64,000 nt of DNA from a virus: positions 1-64,000 of IMG/VR virus record IMGVR_UViG_3300033149_003115. One strand, 5' to 3'. The notes under the pieces were generated by a model that worked only from the letters and a program-made list of their open reading frames with translations, did no database searches and was not told the origin of the DNA. The position numbers were made by a program, and so were the translations under genes. Below, piece by piece: positions 21,207 to 36,100 of this stretch (position 1 is the stretch's first letter; each line of letters begins with the position of its first letter).

Positions 21207-22442
21207 ATGCCAAGAGGTAGTATTAGATCAGGAAATATCTACTCCATAACCCACAACCAGCTAGTTAAGATAGTCAAGAGAGTGTATGAGACTAAGGAAT
21301 CGCTGTTTGTACAGGGAGCTATAGGGATAGGAAAATCAGAAAGTGTTAGAAGAGCAGCTAAGGAGATAGCTCAAGAAAGAGGTCTAGAGTTCATAGAAAC
21401 CAAGTCTCCCAACCAGTATCCAGATAGGTTCTGTTTAGTGGATATTAGACTAGCTCAGAAGGATGCTGGTGAGATCCTGGGGTTACCAGAGAACTATGCT
21501 CTAATAGAGAAGAACGATAACCTCGATATCTTACCTGTCAAGGCTCTAGACGTGTTCCTATCGAACAACCACGATTCTGAGTATAGGATCATAGACTACA
21601 TCACTAGATGGAATCCTCCATCCTGGTTCCCAAGGAAAGGCAATGGTATCATATTCGTAGATGAGTTTAACCTAGCTCCTCCTCTAGTACAATACGCAAT
21701 GTATGAACTCATTAACGATAGAGCTCTGGGAGATTATCACCTACCAGAGGGATGGGTGGTTATAGGAGCTGGTAATAGAGGATCACTGGATGGAGCTACC
21801 ACATTCGAGTTCCCAGCTCCATTGAACGACAGGTTCCTATGGTATGAGCTAAAGATGCCATCAGTAGAGAAATGGACAGAGTATGCAGCTCGTAACGGAG
21901 TGGACTATCGTATTATAGGGTTCCTACAAACCACGAGATCAGCTATATACACCTTTAACCCCAAGTCTAAAGAGAAGGCTTTTGCTACACCTAGAAGCTG
22001 GGTCAAAGCTTCTAGGCTTATTAAAGGGGTGGAGGATGAGGATCTAGTGGAGCTATACCTCTCAGGTGCAGTTGGTAGCTATGTAGCTAAGCAGTTCAGG
22101 GCATACCTCCAAGCTAGGAGAACGTTACCTCCCACAGAGAAATACATCAAAGATCCCAAGGGGACAATGCTACCAAAGGAGAACGATCTGCTGTACACAT
22201 TATGTACTAACTTAGTGGAGTACCTGTCATATCATAAGGATGACAAGGATCAGGGTCTTCCTATACTCAGGAGCATACTGATATTCAGTGAGAGACTGAG
22301 CATGGAGTTTAGGACATTCCTACTCAAGCTAATAAAGCTCTCAGATGAGTCTTACTTCAAGGAGAACATCATTAAAATACCAGAGTTTGATAGGATATGC
22401 TCAACCATATCCAAGTACCTATTAAGAGAGGATGATGACTAG
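21207..22442 (+). CDS. MoxR-like AAA+ ATPase
   Basis: Walker A GAIGIGKS, Walker B IIFVDEFN, VIGAGN, PLNDRF, ATPRSW. Confidence 0.85.
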   Translation: MPRGSIRSGNIYSITHNQLVKIVKRVYETKESLFVQGAIGIGKSESVRRAAKEIAQERGLEFIETKSPNQYPDRFCLVDIRLAQKDAGEILGLPENYALIEKNDNLDILPVKALDVFLSNNHDSEYRIIDYITRWNPPSWFPRKGNGIIFVDEFNLAPPLVQYAMYELINDRALGDYHLPEGWVVIGAGNRGSLDGATTFEFPAPLNDRFLWYELKMPSVEKWTEYAARNGVDYRIIGFLQTTRSAIYTFNPKSKEKAFATPRSWVKASRLIKGVEDEDLVELYLSGAVGSYVAKQFRAYLQARRTLPPTEKYIKDPKGTMLPKENDLLYTLCTNLVEYLSYHKDDKDQGLPILRSILIFSERLSMEFRTFLLKLIKLSDESYFKENIIKIPEFDRICSTISKYLLREDDD

Positions 22443-23718
22443 CATGACTGGAATGAGTGTAGAAGACAAGATAATCAAAGCTAGAGTCCAAATGATATCC
22501 AAAGCTCCATTCTATGGTACTCTGGTGATGAACCTTAACTTTAAAGAAGCAGATCCCAGAGAGATACCCACATGTGCGGTTACCCCTTATGGAACTGTAT
22601 ATTACAACAGAGAGTACATAGAGAACCTGACCCTGGAAGAGCTAAAAGGTGTACTAGTTCATGAGGTGCTTCATGTAGCTTTGCTACATCTGGAAAGAAG
22701 AGGAACCAGAAACATCATCAAAGCCAACATGGCTATGGATTATGCAGTTAACCTCATAGTAGAAGAGGACTTCTCCTTACCTAAGGGAGTATTGCTAGAT
22801 CACAAGTATCAGAACATGGCATGGGAGCAGATATATGATCAGCTACCAGATCCTGAGCTTTGTGATGGAGACTGTAGCAAGTGTCCTCTAGCCAAGGGTA
22901 TGGGTATCCCAGGGAGAGGGTTTGGTAACAAGGCATGTAGGAGATTTGGTAGCTTTGACAAACATATAACCAGAGATGAGCTAGAAAGAGCCAAGGAAGC
23001 TGCTAAGTCAGGTGCATCAAGTGATGATCTAAAGAAGCTAGGAATACCCAAGGAGATCCTGGATGAGGACACCTCCAAGTCTCCTAATTGGAGAAAGATA
23101 ATGTCTGATGCTTATAACTATGCCAAGAACGCAGGCAACCTACCAGCTGGGTTAGAAAGACTAGTGGATGAGTTCTCTCAACCTCAGATATCCTGGAAGG
23201 AGCTACTATCACAGTATGTTAGCAGATCTATTCCCTATAACTTCACCTATCGTAGATGCTCCAGGAAGTCTATAGTGTCAGGACACTACTTCCCATCTCT
23301 CTTGAAGGAGATGATAGAGGTGATGATATGTGTAGACACATCAGGCTCAATAAATGAGGATGATCTAAGGGAGTTCATGGGAGAGATACTAGGACTACTA
23401 AGAAGCTTTGAGAGAGTGGAAATAACATTGATGTCATGTGATACCCAGCTATACCAGGTCAACAAGGTGTCTAATGAATATGATCTAAGAGCATCCAAGC
23501 TAGTGGGTGGAGGAGGTACATCATTCAGACCTGTGTTCAAATACCTGAGAGAGGAAAAGAAGGACACCAAGATCCTAGTCTATTTCACTGATTGTTATGG
23601 GGACTTCCCTGATCCAGATGAGGTTCCATCTGGGTTAACAGTAATATGGGTGGTTACCAGAGATGGAAACCCTGAAGCTATACCAGAATACTTCCCATAT
23701 GTGGTTCAGCTTAAATGA
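22432..23718 (+). CDS. DUF2201-type metallopeptidase plus VWA domain protein
   Basis: LVHEVLH, N.AMDYAVN, MIDAS DTSGS, GGGGTSF, YFTD; usual partner of the upstream MoxR ATPase. Confidence 0.85.
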   Translation: MMTSMTGMSVEDKIIKARVQMISKAPFYGTLVMNLNFKEADPREIPTCAVTPYGTVYYNREYIENLTLEELKGVLVHEVLHVALLHLERRGTRNIIKANMAMDYAVNLIVEEDFSLPKGVLLDHKYQNMAWEQIYDQLPDPELCDGDCSKCPLAKGMGIPGRGFGNKACRRFGSFDKHITRDELERAKEAAKSGASSDDLKKLGIPKEILDEDTSKSPNWRKIMSDAYNYAKNAGNLPAGLERLVDEFSQPQISWKELLSQYVSRSIPYNFTYRRCSRKSIVSGHYFPSLLKEMIEVMICVDTSGSINEDDLREFMGEILGLLRSFERVEITLMSCDTQLYQVNKVSNEYDLRASKLVGGGGTSFRPVFKYLREEKKDTKILVYFTDCYGDFPDPDEVPSGLTVIWVVTRDGNPEAIPEYFPYVVQLK

Positions 23719-28273: not shown

Positions 28274-28641
28274 GAATCTACATAGCAGGTCCATATAGTC
28301 CAGTTAGAGCAAAGGACAAACATGAGGCAGTTCAGGTAGCTGCTAAGAATGTCCATAGAGCCATAGAAGCTGGAATAGTACTGATAGAGAAGGGACACCA
28401 CCCATTCGTACCACATCTAACACACTATATTCATGTTCATCCATCATGTCCTAGAGACTATGGGAAATGGTGGTATGAGTATGACATGACATTTCTGGAG
28501 CTATGGGCTGAAGCTCTTCTCTATCTTGCTCCAAGCAGAGGAGCAGATAAGGAACTAGAGAGAGCTAAGGAACTTGGATTGAGGATCTTCTACTCTATAG
28601 ATGAAGTACCAGACATTTCCAATAGAGCTCCATCAGAGTGA
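28270..28641 (+). CDS. DUF1937/DUF4406-like protein (nucleoside deoxyribosyltransferase-like fold)
   Basis: RIYIAGPY, PFVPH, SRGADKELERAKELG. Confidence 0.7.
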   Translation: MRIYIAGPYSPVRAKDKHEAVQVAAKNVHRAIEAGIVLIEKGHHPFVPHLTHYIHVHPSCPRDYGKWWYEYDMTFLELWAEALLYLAPSRGADKELERAKELGLRIFYSIDEVPDISNRAPSE

Positions 28642-29426
28642 GGAACTTGAATCTATTCTACCACCTAATACAGGGAGACTGCTTAGAAGCTCTCTCAAAG
28701 ATCGATGATAACTCTATAAATCTGGTAGTTACTAGTCCACCATACAACGTAGGTGTAGACTATGGTGTTTACAAGGATAATCTAGACTGGGATGAGTACT
28801 ACAAGTGGTGTGAGAGATGGATGAGAGAGATCTACAGGGTCCTTAAGCCAGATGGAAGAGCCTGCCTAGATCACTACATCAGCTTTGGCTCTAGTAAAGC
28901 AAGATCAAGTCCAGCTCTAGATCTTCACTGTCTATCTAAGAAAATAGGCTTTAAACACCATGCATTGGTGATATGGGAAGAGAGAACTAGAAGTAAATAC
29001 ACAGCTTGGGGTAGCTGGTTAAGTGCATCTGCTCCATGTATCAACTCTCCCTATGAGGCTATTCTTATCCTCTATAAGGATCAATGGAAAAGGATCAATA
29101 AAGGCAAGAGCACAATAGCTAAGGAGGAGTTTCTTGAGGGAGTTTCTGGGATATGGAGACTAGGAACAGATAAGATACGCTTGACTCCAGCTACCTTCCC
29201 AGAGTCACTACCCAGGAGATGTATTAACCTATTTACGTTTGAAGGTGATGTAGTCTTAGATCCATTTATGGGATCTGGAACAACAATGAAAGCTGCTCAG
29301 GACCTTAAGCGGAGCTGTATTGGTATAGAGATAAACCCAGACTATTGTGAGACTATAAAGAAACGATGTTTTGGTAGGATGTTTCTAGACTGTGATGTTG
29401 AATATAGATTTGAGATCATTGAATGA
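28638..29426 (+). CDS. beta-class DNA methyltransferase (SPPY, likely N4-cytosine)
   Basis: VVTSPPYN, PATFP, VLDPFMGSGTT. Confidence 0.9.
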   Translation: MRNLNLFYHLIQGDCLEALSKIDDNSINLVVTSPPYNVGVDYGVYKDNLDWDEYYKWCERWMREIYRVLKPDGRACLDHYISFGSSKARSSPALDLHCLSKKIGFKHHALVIWEERTRSKYTAWGSWLSASAPCINSPYEAILILYKDQWKRINKGKSTIAKEEFLEGVSGIWRLGTDKIRLTPATFPESLPRRCINLFTFEGDVVLDPFMGSGTTMKAAQDLKRSCIGIEINPDYCETIKKRCFGRMFLDCDVEYRFEIIE

Positions 29427-29438
29427 GGAGGTGTGTGT

Positions 29439-29696
29439 ATGAGAGAGATAAGAGTAAGTGACTCTAGGAAGATTGTAGTACAGAAGACCAGGTTTAGGAA
29501 TAGAGAAGTACTTGATGTTAGGACATACATAGAAACTCCTAAGTACACTGGGTTTACCAGGAAGGGAATAAACATCCCAATAGAGTATGCTAAGGATCTT
29601 TCTCAAGCCATACTTGAGGAGATAGCAAAGCAGGATACCATTGATCCTTCCAAGAGCCTGAAACACTTAGATACTAATTTGTCCAGGGAACTGTAG
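29439..29696 (+). CDS. PC4/PdbC-like ssDNA-binding protein
   Basis: FRNREVLDVRTY...FTRKGINIP. Confidence 0.75.
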   Translation: MREIRVSDSRKIVVQKTRFRNREVLDVRTYIETPKYTGFTRKGINIPIEYAKDLSQAILEEIAKQDTIDPSKSLKHLDTNLSREL

Positions 29697-29727
29697 GATT
29701 TACAAAGCTAAAGTGGAGGTGATAATT

Positions 29728-30621
29728 ATGAATGACTTTAAAATTGTTTTATTAGGACACTTAGGAGTGGGATCTATATTCGGAATGATCACCAGAGGAA
29801 ATGAACAGAATAGATTTCAAAGATGGCTGAGGAACGAAGCATGGGAAAAAGCTAAGACAGCTGTTGGGGTTCCAGGGACCTACCCTGATATCCTAGTTAT
29901 AGGTGGAGAAGTAGGAGAGGGACAGAACAGGCTCGATTTCTGTGAGGATATCTGGTTACCAGACTATGAAAAGCAATCCATGATGGGAGCTGAGCTCATA
30001 AGTGAGTGGATAGGTGAGAACACTAAAGAGGTTCTAATTCTCTATGCTCATAGATATCATGGGATGAAAGAGATCAGGTTTGAGGATTTGCTAGCTAAGG
30101 ATCTAAAGATACTTCATCCCAACAAGAAGATACTGGTAGGAACTCAGTTTATCAGATCATACTTTGGTAAGACACTGAGGTTCAGACATGGTACATCTGG
30201 AGCTTTTGTATACTTATCAAGTGCTAATGAGAGACAGATCAAGTTCAACCTGATAGAGTATAGCTTAGGTAAAACACCAAAGTATGACTTCAGCTATGAG
30301 TTCCATAATCACAGAGCAGCTGGAGCCATGTTTGAGACCATTGGATCTATGTGGTGTCCATGTTTCAAGCTAATAGACAGATATGCAGAACTTAGACACC
30401 CCGATGCATGGTTACCAGACATAGGTCTACTAGCTATCACATTCCAGGTTAGGTTTGGTGATGTGAGAGTAAACAATGATCCTATCCTGTTTTATCCTCC
30501 CTTCAGGTTTGAGGATCTGGAGACTGCTATTAGAGACTTTAACAAGGTGTTAGAGGAGAAGAGAAAGGAAACGTATAAGAGACAGCTGGAGCTCCTGAAG
30601 AAGGATACATCATGTTCATAG
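29728..30621 (+). CDS. divergent calcineurin-like phosphoesterase with altered metal-binding motifs
   Basis: IVLLGHLGVG, VIGGEVGEG, RFRHG, FHNH at the positions of the DxH, GDxxD, H and GHxH motifs. Confidence 0.5.
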   Translation: MNDFKIVLLGHLGVGSIFGMITRGNEQNRFQRWLRNEAWEKAKTAVGVPGTYPDILVIGGEVGEGQNRLDFCEDIWLPDYEKQSMMGAELISEWIGENTKEVLILYAHRYHGMKEIRFEDLLAKDLKILHPNKKILVGTQFIRSYFGKTLRFRHGTSGAFVYLSSANERQIKFNLIEYSLGKTPKYDFSYEFHNHRAAGAMFETIGSMWCPCFKLIDRYAELRHPDAWLPDIGLLAITFQVRFGDVRVNNDPILFYPPFRFEDLETAIRDFNKVLEEKRKETYKRQLELLKKDTSCS

Positions 30622-30691
30622 GATAAGCTATGATATGATCCGATGAGATCTGCTTGGTTGTGCTTAGCCAGGTTATGCTAATCTTAGATAA
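30609..30691 (+). ncRNA. pentamer-repeat unit 1 (candidate guide RNA): ATCATGTTCAT leader plus 14 GHT-NN pentamers
   Basis: 12/14 pentamers from 30622 begin G[ACT]T. Confidence 0.75.
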
Positions 30692-30703
30692 CTAGAATAA
30701 TAT

Positions 30704-30776
30704 ATCATGTTCATGGGCTTTGATATGTTAAGCTGGGTTAAGCTCGGTTGTGCTTAGTTGAGCTGAGATAAGTTAA
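30704..30776 (+). ncRNA. pentamer-repeat unit 2 (candidate guide RNA): ATCATGTTCAT leader plus 12 GHT-NN pentamers
   Basis: 12/12 pentamers from 30717 begin G[ACT]T. Confidence 0.75.
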
Positions 30777-30803
30777 ATAGGCTAAATTGTAATTAACGTT
30801 ACA

Positions 30804-30905
30804 TTCATAAGCTCTGATTTGATAAGATATGATGGGTTAGGCTGTGATTAGTTTGGCTTAGCTACGTTGGGTTCGGTTAAGCTAGGATAAGATGTTCTTA
30901 GACAT
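30804..30905 (+). ncRNA. pentamer-repeat unit 3 (candidate guide RNA): TTCAT leader plus 19 pentamers
   Basis: 17 consecutive G[ACT]T-NN from 30811, then TCT-TA GAC-AT. Confidence 0.75.
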
Positions 30906-30936
30906 AATTTGAGCTATGATAATTGGAGGTGATATT

Positions 30937-31506
30937 ATGGAGTCAGATTTGATATACCAAATAAGATGTAGAATAATAGGACTAAGACCATATCTACAAC
31001 ATAGAAGACCCATAGACAAGAAAGAGAATAAAGAGCTAAGTAACTTGATTAAAATACTACAGAAAGATGCTACTGATGAGAAAGCATATACTAAGGAAGC
31101 TGAGTACTATGTCTACAAGAACGACAATGGATACTATATTCCATCCATACACATCAAGAGTGCTATGATCAAAGCTTCTACTAACTTTAAGGTAGGAGGG
31201 AAAGGTAACAAGACATACAAGGATTTCGTTAAAGGATTCGTAGTAATAGATCCAAAAGAGATACCAATAAATCCTCAAAAATACACTCTAGATAGAAGAT
31301 GGGAAAGAGTACAACAAGCTAGGATCATGAGAACTAGACCTAGATTTGATGATTGGTCAGCTGAGTTTAATCTAATTAGCTTAGATGAGACAGTATTACC
31401 AATGAAAGACCTAAAGAAAATCATAGTGTATGCAGGAAAGTATATCGGTATTGGAGATAGAAGACCAGAGTTTGGTAGGTTTAAAGTAGAGTTTCTAGAT
31501 GACTAA
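30937..31506 (+). CDS. stand-alone RAMP (Cas7/Csm3-like) protein; candidate Vipr-type RNA-guided effector
   Basis: N-terminal IxCRIIGLRPY strand, YYIPSIHIKSAM (RAMP YIPxSSxKG-like), RPRFDDWSAEF, Gly-rich loop AGKYIGIGDRRPEFGRFKV; RBS GGAGGTG at 30925. Confidence 0.8.
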   Translation: MESDLIYQIRCRIIGLRPYLQHRRPIDKKENKELSNLIKILQKDATDEKAYTKEAEYYVYKNDNGYYIPSIHIKSAMIKASTNFKVGGKGNKTYKDFVKGFVVIDPKEIPINPQKYTLDRRWERVQQARIMRTRPRFDDWSAEFNLISLDETVLPMKDLKKIIVYAGKYIGIGDRRPEFGRFKVEFLDD

Positions 31507-31541
31507 CGAGACTAGGGTCTTACTACTAGGAAGTAAAACAA

Positions 31542-31751
31542 GTGAAGTCCAATATCTACTTATGTTTTGATCATTATACCCATATTTGTCCTAAGATAGG
31601 AAACCATGAGATCTGTTGTTACTCTTGTCCCTATTATATTCCAGAGCTTCACAGGTGTACTAAGAGAGAAGGGTTTGGATGTATAGAAGATCCATCTAAG
31701 TGTGAATATAGAATAAAGCTAACTAAAGAATATGTAATGGAAATACTCTAG
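31542..31751 (+). CDS. Cys-rich family B protein
   Basis: IYLC...CP...CCYSCP...C...C...C; tail VMEIL. Confidence 0.65.
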   Translation: MKSNIYLCFDHYTHICPKIGNHEICCYSCPYYIPELHRCTKREGFGCIEDPSKCEYRIKLTKEYVMEIL

Positions 31752-32005
31752 AGATGAACACTAAAGATACAATATATTATTGTACAAAATACACCTATAA
31801 GCCTAATAGGTGTGTCCTACCACCGAGTATGGATACACATATTATCACCTCTTTCCTCCTAAAGAAAGAAGAATGTGTAGAGAGATTATCCTTCTCCCTC
31901 CATGATCCAAGATTAATCCCTATCTCTAAATCCCTATATGATGTTAGGTCTTAAATGTAATGATCATGAGATTTTAAAAAAGAGATAGTAGCTAAAAGAG
32001 ATATA

Positions 32006-32413
32006 GTGATCTTAGCAATGAAACACACAGGTATAAAATACAAACCTAAACACCCTCTAAGTTATACCTGGAGAGGATCCTTCATCTGGGTTGGACCATC
32101 CATAACATCTTCTCTAAGTGATCTAGAGGATCTGATGAGAAAGAGCAAGATCCAGGAGATAGAGAAAAACAGGAAGGTGATGTTGGCTTATAAGAGGATG
32201 TACTCTAAGACTGCTATTTGTCATTCTATTATAGGATCTAGCTCTCTTATAGTTCTACTATCCCTCTTGTTGATAGGGGTACTAGAATCTTTAGCTTTGT
32301 TACCCCTTGTTCTCCTTAGTATCTTTAGGATTATCGAGAGCTATTCTGATTACACAGATAAGAAAGATAAGTATGAGCAATCTCTTAAGAGCTTTGTGAT
32401 AGAGGATATTTAA
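32006..32413 (+). CDS. membrane protein with shared C-terminal tail (VIEDI)
   Basis: two hydrophobic helices near the C-terminus. Confidence 0.55.
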   Translation: MILAMKHTGIKYKPKHPLSYTWRGSFIWVGPSITSSLSDLEDLMRKSKIQEIEKNRKVMLAYKRMYSKTAICHSIIGSSSLIVLLSLLLIGVLESLALLPLVLLSIFRIIESYSDYTDKKDKYEQSLKSFVIEDI

Positions 32414-32415
32414 AC

Positions 32416-32486
32416 GATCATAGTGAGATTAGTTAAGCTTTGTTCCGTTAGGCTCGGCTTCGCTAGGTTAAGTTAGGTTAAGTTTA
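32416..32486 (+). ncRNA. pentamer-repeat unit 4 (detached candidate guide RNA)
   Basis: TCATAG leader, then 12/12 G[ACT]T-NN pentamers from 32427; intergenic. Confidence 0.7.
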
Positions 32487-32551
32487 ATATCACTAAATGC
32501 CGATACTATCGTTATATCCTGATAATAGATTAATAAGAGGTGTATTTAGAA

Positions 32552-33127
32552 ATGGGTACCAGAGGATTATATGGATTCTATAAGAATGGGATAACCAAGG
32601 CTACATACAACCACTGGGATAGTTACCCAGAGGGGTTAGGGCTAGATCTACTGGAGGAGCTGAGAGAATACACTATAGAGCAGCTCAATGAAACATTTGA
32701 CAGGATAATCCTGGTATCTGAGTCATCAAAAGCTACTGATGAGCAAATAGAGGAGTGTAAGAGGTATCTGGATCTCTCAGTGTCTACTAGATCCTCTAAT
32801 GACTGGTACTGTCTCCTACGTCAGGCTCAAGGTAGCCTGAGACCATGGGTGAAGGATGGACTAAGGTATATGATCGATAATGCCTCTTTCATTAGAGACA
32901 GCTTATTCTGTGAGTGGGCTTATATAATTAATCTAGATACCAATGAGCTTGAAGTGTGGAAAGGGTTTCAGCGTTTACCTGTCAAGAGCAGATATTATGA
33001 TCATAGATCTCCTGTCCATGGGTATTATCCATGTGTCCTGGTCAAGAGGTACAAGCTGGATAGTCTACCTTCTAATGAGAAGTTCCTGGAGGACATGAAA
33101 GTAGTAGAAATGATAGAGGATCTCTAG
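32552..33127 (+). CDS. phage-type hypothetical protein
   Basis: MGTRG...YNHWDSYPEGLG...CEWAYIINLD pattern typical of viral hypotheticals; tail MIEDL. Confidence 0.65.
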   Translation: MGTRGLYGFYKNGITKATYNHWDSYPEGLGLDLLEELREYTIEQLNETFDRIILVSESSKATDEQIEECKRYLDLSVSTRSSNDWYCLLRQAQGSLRPWVKDGLRYMIDNASFIRDSLFCEWAYIINLDTNELEVWKGFQRLPVKSRYYDHRSPVHGYYPCVLVKRYKLDSLPSNEKFLEDMKVVEMIEDL

Positions 33128-33129
33128 TC

Positions 33130-36100
33130 TTGAGGACCATGACATGTGCTCATTGTGGTAGGCAGTTCACTTGTAGTGGTAAATGCCAGAGGATCAGTCC
33201 CTACACATCCACTCTTTGCTCTTGTCTGGACTGTAGGATCAAGTTCTTAGTCAACTGTGAAATAGAACGATTCTCAGTCCTTCTAAAGGATATTCTAGAG
33301 ATCTATTCCACATGCTATGATCTTAGTGTAGAAGAGCTAAAGAAGAGATATATTATGTGTCTTATTTAGAGGACTATATCTAATGAAAGACACTAAATGC
33401 TTTAGATGTGGTAAAACATTCAAATGTACTAAAGATTGTACTCATAAACCATTCACATTCTTACCAGAGAACTCTGAACTTGAAACTGTTTGTATATGTC
33501 TAGATTGTAGAATAGAAGATTATCTTGAGCTTAGATCTAAGGCATGGGCATTACAAAGAGGTAAAACACCTTCATTTTTGGAATATAGCTTTTTTATTAA
33601 AGGATGTGTTAGCTGTTATAACATACCTGAAGAAGAAGTAAAGAAGAGGATATTGATAGACACGCTATGAGGTAAACACATGAAGAGGATGAAGTGTGCT
33701 AGCTGTGGAATAGAATTTGAGTGTACTCGTTTTTGTAGTCACTTACTCCCCTTTAGAGAAACTTGTTTATGTCTTAAATGTCAGATACGTTTACAAAAGA
33801 ATGTAGTAGGAGAAATTCTAGAGCTATATGGAGGACTAGGAGCTGATGATGAATATATCAGACGATGCTTTAATTTAAGTAGAGAGGAGCTAAAGAAGCT
33901 AAAGGTCATAGAAACATTATAAATGGGATAACAAATGATATGTTGGAACTGTGGTAAATCATTTGAGTGTACTAAGTATTGTCAATCTAAGCTTGATCCA
34001 GTTGAATATTGTCTATGCATGGAATGTCAGATCAAGATATTGAACTCTCCAAAAGAAGGATATATTTTTATCCCTAGGACATATTCTCCAATAGAGGTAG
34101 AGGATATCATGAGGTGTTTCGATCTATCCAGGACTGATCTAGAGAAGCTCCAGGTGATACATCTCTTATGATCTACACTTCTCGATGTGTCAGATGTGGT
34201 AAGATCTTTAAGTGTACTAAGAGATGTACTTTGTCACCTGAGGTACCTTATGGTTGTATATGTCTGAAATGTAGGTTAGAGGAGATCAAGAAGAACATAG
34301 ATCCCTATAGGATGATAGGGAAGCTGGATAGCATACTAGACTTATACTCATCCTGCTATGATGTCCCTCTTGATACTATGAAGAAGCTCTTCTTTATCAG
34401 CTATTTGTAGGGAATAACCTTGTATAAGATGAAACATGTCAACTGGGATAAGGTATTTGAATATACCAGGTTCTGTGATCCTATGATTTCTAGCTCTTAT
34501 CATCCTAGAGAAATTTTAGAAGGGAGCGTAGACAGGTGTTTGTGTTTAAGTGTCAAATCAGATATTTTAGAACCTATACTAAGGAGCTGTTTTGGTCTTT
34601 CTAAGAAAAAGTGTAAAGAGCCTATTATTGATAGAGGATTTATAGATTGACTAAAGTAATCTGTGCTAGATGTGGTAAGGAGTTCAAATGTGAGGGAATA
34701 TGTCCTTCTTTCTCATTATCCCCTCAAAATAGGTGTATCTGTTTAGAATGTAGGCTAAAAAACTTCCCTTATTATAGCGATAATTTCTATTTCTTTGGTA
34801 AGGAGTACACCAAGAAATGTTTTAATCTAAGTGAAGAGGAGATCTCTAAGCTACTAATAATCTATAGTTTATAGAGTGATCATATTTGGGAGAATAAGGT
34901 TATATGTTCTCAATGATCTTTTTGATAGTATACACTTTGTGATTATATCATGATAGTTAGATGTTTAGACTGTGGTAGAGTCATCAAGTGTACCAGATCA
35001 TGTCATAAGATCAAAAGTCTGAAGGGGAGAGATCTGGTATTTTGCTATTGCTCAGACTGTCTAATGAAGCAGCTAGATAAGCTTTCAAGATATTCAGATA
35101 GAAGCTCCAAGCTCTCTGAGTCTGACTTGAATGATATTCTAGACAGGTTAGAAAGATGCTTTGAGATGGACAAGAGCGAAATAGACAAGATCCTAATCCT
35201 TTATTCCTTATAGCAATATTTAAGAGATGAGGTGGATGAAGAAGCCTAAAGTAGTGAGGGTTAAGCCTAAGCTTAAGCTAGAGAGCTCAATGTCTGGATA
35301 CATTATCTATCTATGTGATGATCTGGGAAATGAGATATGGACTGAGCTATTTAAGGATGTGAAAGAGGCTACCACTATATACAATGTCCTCTCTGAGGTC
35401 CTGCTATCCCTTAGACTTAACTCATTTCATATCATGAGATCCACATAGAGGGTTTTAGCTTGGATATTAAACATGTTTGTGAGTTTGAAGCATCTGGTGG
35501 ACTATGCTGGCTAAAGGGTCTTAGGGTATGTAATGAAATAGACTATACCAAGTGTAAGACACGTAAAGCTGGACTGATCGTCTGTGAGCTATAGGTGTTA
35601 GATCTTGATAAGAGTCTGCTCCAAGTGTGGTGTTGAGTTCGTGTGCAATGGAGAGTGTCCTCAATATAGAATGTTTGGTCCTTCTTGTATCTGTCTAAGA
35701 TGTAGACTAGTCTTACTCAAAACATGGAAAGAGTATTTTAATCTAGGCTATTCTTACCTGATGAGGATACTTAAAATAGAAGAGTGTTTTAACCTGGATG
35801 ATATTGAAATAAAGAAGATCTTGCTAACAGAGCTACTTTAGGAGGAAGACATTAAATTGATACCTGTATGTAAGAACTGTGGAAGCTCAAATATACTGGT
35901 CAAGTGGGTACGTAAGTCAGAGAAATCAGATATTGTCTCGTTTGAGAAGTATGCTAATAAACTACTAGAGGAGAGGAAGAACACCAAGCATGATATTGGA
36001 TCTCTCTATTCATCAACCATTTCCTACCCCTTCCCATCTCTCGGATCAGTGCCTGATCCCATCACTAATTACGCTCAGCTGGTCCTGACTTGTAAGAACT

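Follow-up and report, generated by a model that had tools for sequence, protein, structure and literature searches.

We found that a 60-base tract in the genome of a large virus from hydrothermal-vent metagenomes is very probably the repeat (guide) region of the fourth vrRNA gene of a VIPR system. The tract occupies positions 32427-32486 on the + strand of the analyzed DNA, a 64,000-base stretch (hereafter, the window) covering positions 1 to 64,000 of the IMG/VR record IMGVR_UViG_3300033149_003115. VIPR (Viral Interference Programmable Repeat), first described in 2026, is a CRISPR-like, RNA-guided mode of DNA silencing of viruses (10.64898/2026.04.26.720920). As presented in the text of that report, a VIPR system consists of a stand-alone ancestral RAMP protein, Vipr, usually accompanied by one accessory gene (vap), and of vrRNAs of ~100 nt, which are composed of 9-16 YNNGG (GGY/NN) units followed by a 3' tail and co-purify with Vipr; the NN dinucleotides read double-stranded DNA with every third base skipped (1-nt skip), the natural targets are competing phages and satellites, and the outcome is transcriptional silencing (10.64898/2026.04.26.720920). 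If our assignment is correct, a VIPR system is added to a large hydrothermal-vent virus, and the pentamer units that the original prediction had noticed from the letters of the DNA find their explanation as guide-RNA genes rather than as an element of an unknown kind.

The tract, hereafter unit 4, begins 921 bases after the end of vipr (31506), and all 12 of its pentamers fit G[ACT]TNN (GATTA GTTAA GCTTT GTTCC GTTAG GCTCG GCTTC GCTAG GTTAA GTTAG GTTAA GTTTA), yielding the NN string TA AA TT CC AG CG TC AG AA AG AA TA. The original prediction was thus right in reporting 12/12 GHT-NN pentamers at this site and in placing them about 0.9 kb past the neighboring RAMP gene. It had further described the pentamers as following TCATAG; the order is correct, but the two are not directly adjacent, with TGA (32424-32426) intervening between TCATAG (32418-32423) and the first pentamer.

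The unit 4 tract is real and far beyond chance. A regular-expression scan for G[ACT]TNN runs of at least 5 units detected four tracts in the window, of 9, 12, 17 and 12 units, respectively, all on the + strand and none on the - strand. Across the whole 113,897-base genome, assembled as one contig, no run of more than 4 units was found beyond these same four tracts, and the suggestion that more units may exist elsewhere in the element was not borne out. In 200 genomes simulated under a first-order Markov model, the longest run comprised 3 (45 genomes), 4 (141), 5 (13) or 6 (1) units; the possibility, raised together with the original prediction, that similar tracts arise at background frequency is contradicted by simulated genomes that reach at most 6 units. 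A periodicity scan for tracts with at least 8 units and at least 2 invariant phases returned the four tracts at period 5 and 0 tracts at periods 4, 6 and 7. Tandem Repeats Finder reported nothing but two short rows of period 10 (2.1-2.3 copies), which rules out slippage of one unit, in agreement with the earlier argument against local slippage. When shifted to the best offset, the four NN strings are still no more than 55% alike, and that of unit 4 is indeed unrelated to those of units 1-3, as had been claimed. Furthermore, a 151-base contig from run X4 (record 31) spans 32399-32549 and carries 3 letters different from the window.

All four units lie on the + strand, the first starting 315 bases ahead of vipr and the last ending 980 bases past it. 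Unit 1 (30622-30681) begins where the upstream ORF ends, directly past its stop codon, is preceded by TTCATAG and comprises 12 pentamers, namely 9 perfect ones (30622-30666), one GCC unit and 2 further perfect ones. It is followed by unit 2 (30717-30776), in which 12/12 pentamers are GHT/NN, with TTCATGG before and a CTAAAT-containing tail and a short hairpin after the repeats, and by unit 3 (30811-30895), in which 17/17 pentamers are GHT/NN, with TTCATAA before and a TCTTAGA tail after them. Unit 4 (32427-32486), with 12/12 GHT/NN pentamers, stands on the other side of vipr. That units can be dispersed, as had been proposed for this element, has a published counterpart in phage SUSP1, for which the text of the first VIPR report places one vrRNA ahead of the genes and the other three behind them (10.64898/2026.04.26.720920). 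Over the 53 units of the window, pentamer position 1 is G in 53, position 2 is C (19), T (19) or A (15) and G in 0, position 3 is T in 52 and C in 1, and positions 4-5 take all four bases. GG[CT]NN runs of at least 4 units were searched for in the whole genome and none was found. The same first report defines the family so as to admit 'a related consensus' besides GGY (10.64898/2026.04.26.720920); the lack of GGY repeats here therefore does not exclude membership in VIPR.

In the flanks of the units, TCAT[AG][AG] stands 0-3 bases ahead of all 4 units and is missing in the relatives, and there are two types of tail, TCTTAGA after units 1 and 3, and ATA..CTAAAT with a small hairpin after units 2 and 4. 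Upstream of unit 4, an AT-rich box, ATATTTAAA, together with the TCATAG+TGA leader (32405-32426, +), can be read as a possible promoter or 5' handle of the unit; a consensus promoter scan gave no match at 32405-32426, and predicted promoter and terminator sites were not above the numbers in shuffled sequence. Downstream lies a putative 3' tail (32487-32539, +; ATATCACTAAATGCC...) with small hairpins, the extent of which we infer, the next ORF starting at 32540. The four putative transcripts are predicted to fold no more stably than shuffled sequences (z from -1.2 to +0.8; +0.78 for unit 4), as expected if single strands are protein-bound. An Rfam scan of 29500-33500 at E values of up to 1 returned no family, CRISPR repeat families included, and blastn of 29400-33200 against a phage collection gave no match. 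Contigs of four vent-metagenome runs mapped on the region in fragments, with parts of the array uncovered in three of the four runs. One low-depth contig from run X1, another vent sample, matches the ~300-aa ORF upstream of the array to position 30619 and then continues into different G-H-T-type units. This single contig hints that the guide array may differ between strains.

The gene between units 3 and 4, vipr (30937-31506, +), encodes a 189-aa stand-alone RAMP protein with the G-loop GIGD-R175-RP. A Pfam search of this protein returned no family, and it matches phrog_4652, of unknown function, with an E value of 3.5e-26. Its AlphaFold2 model (pLDDT 89, pTM 0.83) retrieved from the PDB, as the best Foldseek matches, Cas7 of type VII and Csm3 of type III-A (E values from 8e-6 to 5e-4, TM ~0.5); thus, the RAMP label given to the neighboring gene in the original prediction is right. 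A profile of thirteen Vipr homologues (A1) matched chain D of PDB entry 36pp, 'SUSP1 Vipr protein', with an E value of 2.1e-25 over profile positions 2-183 of 186. In a tblastn search that matched 149 phage records overall, the window protein aligned to phiSUSP1 with 100% query coverage, 29.8% identity and an E value of 2e-13. In the SUSP1 structure, as described in the text of the structural report, one protomer binds each repeat, H17 and D177 read G1, G2 is held between R138 of the thumb and W178 of the G-loop, and the Y3 pocket includes R179 (10.64898/2026.04.26.720927). Judging from the alignment, the SUSP1 contact residues H17, K33, R138, D177 and R179 are kept in the window protein as H22, K39, R134, D174 and R176, and W178 is replaced by R175, so that five of the six contact residues are kept.

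We then compared 70 Vipr homologue loci, 54 from viral contigs and 16 from metagenome contigs. Runs of at least 6 GG[CT]NN units are present on the gene strand in 50/70 loci and on the opposite strand in 0/70, which bears out the earlier claim that the pattern is selected. Two further loci carry runs with other spellings, GHT in L078 and HGT in L092, bringing the total to 52/70 loci on the gene strand versus 0 on the opposite one. The remaining 18 loci have no run at this threshold, some of them being cut at contig ends or spelled otherwise. Beyond these loci, ~300 kb of viral DNA, drawn from the remainder of this genome and from two other genomes, G001 and G004, contained no such runs, except for the array of G001 itself. 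As a positive control, the same scan applied to phiSUSP1 (L094) detected GGY runs to either side of vipr, all on the strand of the gene. The restriction of the arrays to the gene strand beside vipr homologues indicates that protein and pentamer array form one conserved module. Together with the homology to SUSP1 Vipr, this strand-specific association argues for the tract being a VIPR vrRNA gene.

The GHT spelling is shared by three genomes, those of the window, G001 (locus L001) and L078, in which position 2 is G in 0/53, 2/37 and 2/37 units, respectively. The Vipr of L078 is 69% identical to that of the window, and its locus shows the 3' end of the 300-aa ORF, the array (with GAT, GCT and GTT units) and vipr, in this order. 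G001 is a complete genome of 107,896 bases with terminal repeats, its Vipr is 66% identical, and its GHT tracts precede the 300-aa ORF and are broken up, the pieces measuring 3-7 units. The two ends of the G001 contig (L057 1-114 and L001 1-114) share a direct terminal repeat of 114 bases, which crosses the short interval separating the 300-aa ORF from vipr; this genome was thus opened, in assembly, inside its VIPR locus.

The same three genomes share a substitution in the protein. Of the 54 loci classed as GGY on at least 5 units, 53 have an aromatic residue (W, Y or F) at X of the GxGD-X-RP motif, the site that corresponds to SUSP1 W178. The remaining locus of this class, L088, has Asn at the W178 site, keeps His at the H17 site and carries GGT repeats; hence, an aromatic residue at the W178 site is not strictly required for G2. 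Among the 70 loci and the window, Arg is found at this site only in the window, G001 and L078, and its confinement to one clade implies one evolutionary event. In this one clade, Arg175 can be read as marking a retuned second-base pocket. Other loci point, if imperfectly, towards covariation of pocket and spelling. Asn occupies the H17 site in L087, L090, L092 and L093, three of which have NGT/NN units in which position 1 varies (YNNNG type); these four metagenome loci represent a Vipr subfamily, to which L088 is related. In L089, nine G-N-Y/NN units (1161-1205) accompany Gln at the W178 site, and G1 is kept despite Asn at the H17 site. Units of two further kinds were observed beside Vipr homologues, TG-H/NN in L008 (3622-3666) and K-G-C/NN in L017 (2915-2959).

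From these comparisons, we put forward, tentatively and with some doubt, that the G-H-U clade could be a separate VIPR specificity class in which the Trp-to-Arg change retunes the pocket such that GHU guides are loaded and GGY guides rejected. If this is true, the virus would be shielded against GGY-type competitors that deploy solo or decoy vrRNAs. More generally, pocket residues may co-vary with the degenerate repeat position, Arg or Gln at the W178 site going with position 2 and Asn at the H17 site with position 1 (L087, L090 and L092), in which case the spelling of VIPR repeats would be predictable from the protein sequence. In SUSP1, a GGY to GAY change abolished silencing, according to the legend of fig. 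S12 of the first report (10.64898/2026.04.26.720920), which places a GHU repeat outside the range shown to work. The clade represents a natural experiment on the reading of the fixed triplet by Vipr, as it uses GAU, GCU and GUU and has altered the exact residue that stacks on the second G. GHT/NN is not among the motifs named in the texts of 10.64898/2026.04.26.720920 and 10.64898/2026.10.21.760802, the full lists being given in fig. S17 and fig. S10A, respectively. What is possibly new is only the G-H-U spelling with the matching Trp-to-Arg change, non-canonical spellings as such having already been reported. Should the relationship hold, it would provide orthogonal Vipr-guide pairs and a first rule connecting the spelling of the repeats with the sequence of the protein.

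Directly upstream of the array lies the ~300-aa ORF (29719-30621, +), homologues of which adjoin vipr in G001 (86% identity), in L084 (52%), in L078 (3' end only) and, weakly, in L086; 8 homologues are present in the protein collection. Its matches in Pfam are all below threshold, its profile found nothing in the PDB (best E value of 1.3), and its AlphaFold2 model (pLDDT 52) is too poor for a structure search. An Atlas search gave as a lead, and as a lead only, PF00149 (Metallophos), assigned to 17% of the members of the top cluster. We regard the ORF as a candidate for the accessory (vap-like) gene of the system, and its product may be a divergent metallophosphoesterase. Further upstream is a DNA methylase gene (28638-29426; PF01555, E value of 6.5e-45). 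Between the methylase gene and the VIPR locus, an 87-aa ORF (29433-29696) resembles PC4 (PF02229; 24.6 bits against a cut-off of 25, E value of 1.7e-5) and is a possible single-stranded-DNA-binding protein. Among the ORFs scanned around the locus, no other cas genes were recognized, the neighbors being the DNA methylase, the PC4-like protein and unknowns.

On the other side of vipr, neither unit 4 nor the three small ORFs that separate it from vipr have a counterpart in G001 or L078, and the ORF that follows unit 4 has no homologue in G001. Given that these neighbors lack G001 homologues, unit 4 sits in a variable region. A run of ORFs of ~75-95 aa extends over 33130-35448 (+), and several of their products share Cys-rich N-termini with the pattern C-x2-C-G-x2-F-x-C-T-x2-C, which points to small, zinc-finger-like paralogues arranged in tandem immediately past the VIPR region. 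Elsewhere in the window, a 428-aa ORF (22432-23718) combines a DUF2201 metallopeptidase-like domain (E value of 5.6e-38) with a VWA-like domain (E value of 1.5e-19). The domain of life of the host was not settled by Pfam searches of nine large ORFs.

To look for targets, we used the guides under the skip rule of the published systems, in which a match is accepted at 80% NN identity and self-targets, as stated in the text of that report, are absent (10.64898/2026.04.26.720920). Within the virus's own genome, with skips of 0-2, the best scores were 16-18/24 and 21/34, equal to those of shuffled-guide controls. In the whole G001 genome and all 70 homologue loci (364 kb), with skips of 0-3, the best scores likewise fell within the shuffled-guide range. 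The exact 12-NN pattern of unit 4 had 0 matches in the viral, metagenome and genome contig collections, its 11-NN pattern had 0 matches in genome contigs, and 10-NN seeds of units 1-3 had 0 matches each in viral contigs. Seeds of 9 NN from unit 4 matched, among viral contigs, L064 (18/24) and four related contigs, L065-L068 (21/24), the latter inside a glycosyltransferase-like ORF of a virus with 37% GC. We rejected L064-L068 as chance hits, 18 fixed bases being expected, by our estimate, about once per such collection. On L065-L068, just 3 of the 6 extra bases match, and units 1-3 do not score above controls on that virus. Conceivably, the variable position-2 base (H) might pair with the base that is skipped in the target; across the rejected hits, the skip bases equal H in 0-3 of 12 cases. 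The collection scans accepted exact patterns only, as against the 80% NN identity sufficient in the published systems; imperfect targets would thus be missed, and the blank result is weak.

By analogy with SUSP1, unit 4 would be transcribed from the + strand and, with one Vipr protomer per pentamer, would carry 12 protomers. The fixed G-H-U triplets would be flipped into pockets of the protein, and the 12 NN dinucleotides would pair with double-stranded DNA, every third base of the target (xNNxNN...) being skipped. The predicted outcome is the silencing of a competing mobile element. For this guide, transcription, filament assembly, 1-nt-skip reading and silencing are steps that we infer from the literature.

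Other explanations of the tract were considered. The RNA of unit 4 might be loaded by Vipr without serving as a guide against competitors, acting instead as a decoy or titrating RNA or as a cis-regulatory leader of the ORF at 32540-33127. This would fit with the finding of no target in any collection and with the location of unit 4 in the 5' region of that ORF, ending 53 bases before its start codon; moreover, solo or orphan vrRNAs with redirecting roles have been reported (10.64898/2026.10.15.759431). However, unit 4 equals unit 2 in length (12 units) and in tail type, its NN dinucleotides vary as much as do those of units 1-3, and an absence of targets is to be expected for a poorly sampled habitat. 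We therefore regard a decoy or leader as improbable. It is more improbable still that unit 4 is a decaying, non-functional copy of the array left by rearrangement. Its detachment by 0.9 kb, the lack of conservation of the surrounding genes in G001 and the degenerate, frame-broken tracts of the relatives could be taken that way, but a decaying copy would be difficult to square with 12/12 perfect pentamers, when unit 1 contains a GCC unit and the G001 tracts are broken, with the retained TCATAG leader and the tail like that of unit 2, or with the recurrence of unit 4, with 3 differences, in the contig of another run.

Hardly credible, in our judgment, is a reading of the tracts as iterons in double-stranded DNA, that is, as an origin, partition or packaging site recognized by some DNA-binding protein. 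Iterons are typically tandem short repeats in intergenic DNA, which speaks for such a reading. Yet the G-bearing strand is always the vipr strand (52/70 loci versus 0 opposite), just two of the five pentamer positions are fixed, the partner protein belongs to the RAMPs and has a homologue whose structure was solved with RNA, and, as the text of the first report states, vrRNAs of the published system have been sequenced and co-purified with Vipr (10.64898/2026.04.26.720920). A guide region of a fourth vrRNA gene thus remains our preferred interpretation of unit 4. Weighing against it are the lack of a target for any of the four guides, the loss of silencing in SUSP1 upon the GAY change, the absence of unit 4 and of the small ORFs beside it from G001 and L078, and the fact that no 3' tail that is both conserved and structured is evident; the GGT repeats of L088, next to Asn at the W178 site, weigh against the pocket reading. 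The interpretation can be set against several known systems.

The binding sites of TRAP, the trp RNA-binding attenuation protein, consist of 11 (G/U)AG triplets separated by spacers of 2-3 bases. The window tracts resemble them in having fixed triplets about five bases apart in what would be single-stranded RNA bound by an oligomer. In contrast to TRAP, which forms a beta-sandwich ring, the partner here is a RAMP, and the information resides in the spacers rather than in the triplets; a TRAP-like reading was dropped in view of the VIPR papers and of the match to PDB 36pp. The similarity to Cas7 and Csm3 of class 1 CRISPR systems extends over the RRM core, the G-loop and the thumb, and would include one protomer per RNA segment with flipped bases. 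Unlike the crRNAs of Cas7 and Csm3, however, the pentamer tracts have a period of 5, not 6, and the guide comes without a repeat-spacer array.

Alternative repeats of VIPR, namely NNNGG, YNNNG and NNNNG, are listed in the methods of the first report (10.64898/2026.04.26.720920), and the text of a later one describes 21 clusters with non-canonical motifs, of which it names GAC/NN, CAC/NN, WGT/NN and TGH/NN (10.64898/2026.10.21.760802). Like the non-canonical repeats described there, the window tracts show a period of 5, about 10 or more units, an adjoining Vipr-like fold and one degenerate triplet position. Written in the Y-first register, the window repeat is YNNGH (T-N-N-G-H), with one non-G base between G and T. 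It differs in this respect from YNNNG and WGT/NN, in which G directly precedes T, as seen in L092, L087 and L090, and it differs from TGH/NN as well. Among the classes in the published texts, YNNGH would fit just the loosest one, NNNNG.

Compared with the type II VIPR system of Escherichia phage SUSP1, which comprises Vipr, Vap1 and four vrRNAs, the window system departs in several features. Its triplet is G-H-U, with G at position 2 in 0/53 units, where SUSP1 has GGY; Arg175 stands in the place of W178; its tails contain no recognizable pseudoknot; the neighboring gene is the ~300-aa ORF, at most a putative counterpart of vap1; and its carrier is a 114-kb virus from hydrothermal-vent metagenomes. 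Unit 3, with 17 units, is one above the published range of 9-16. The two systems agree in possessing a stand-alone RAMP of ~190 aa with homology over its full length, four guide genes, each with about 12 pentamers and lying on the same strand as vipr, that are divided between a main array and a separate position, and variable NN dinucleotides without a self-target.
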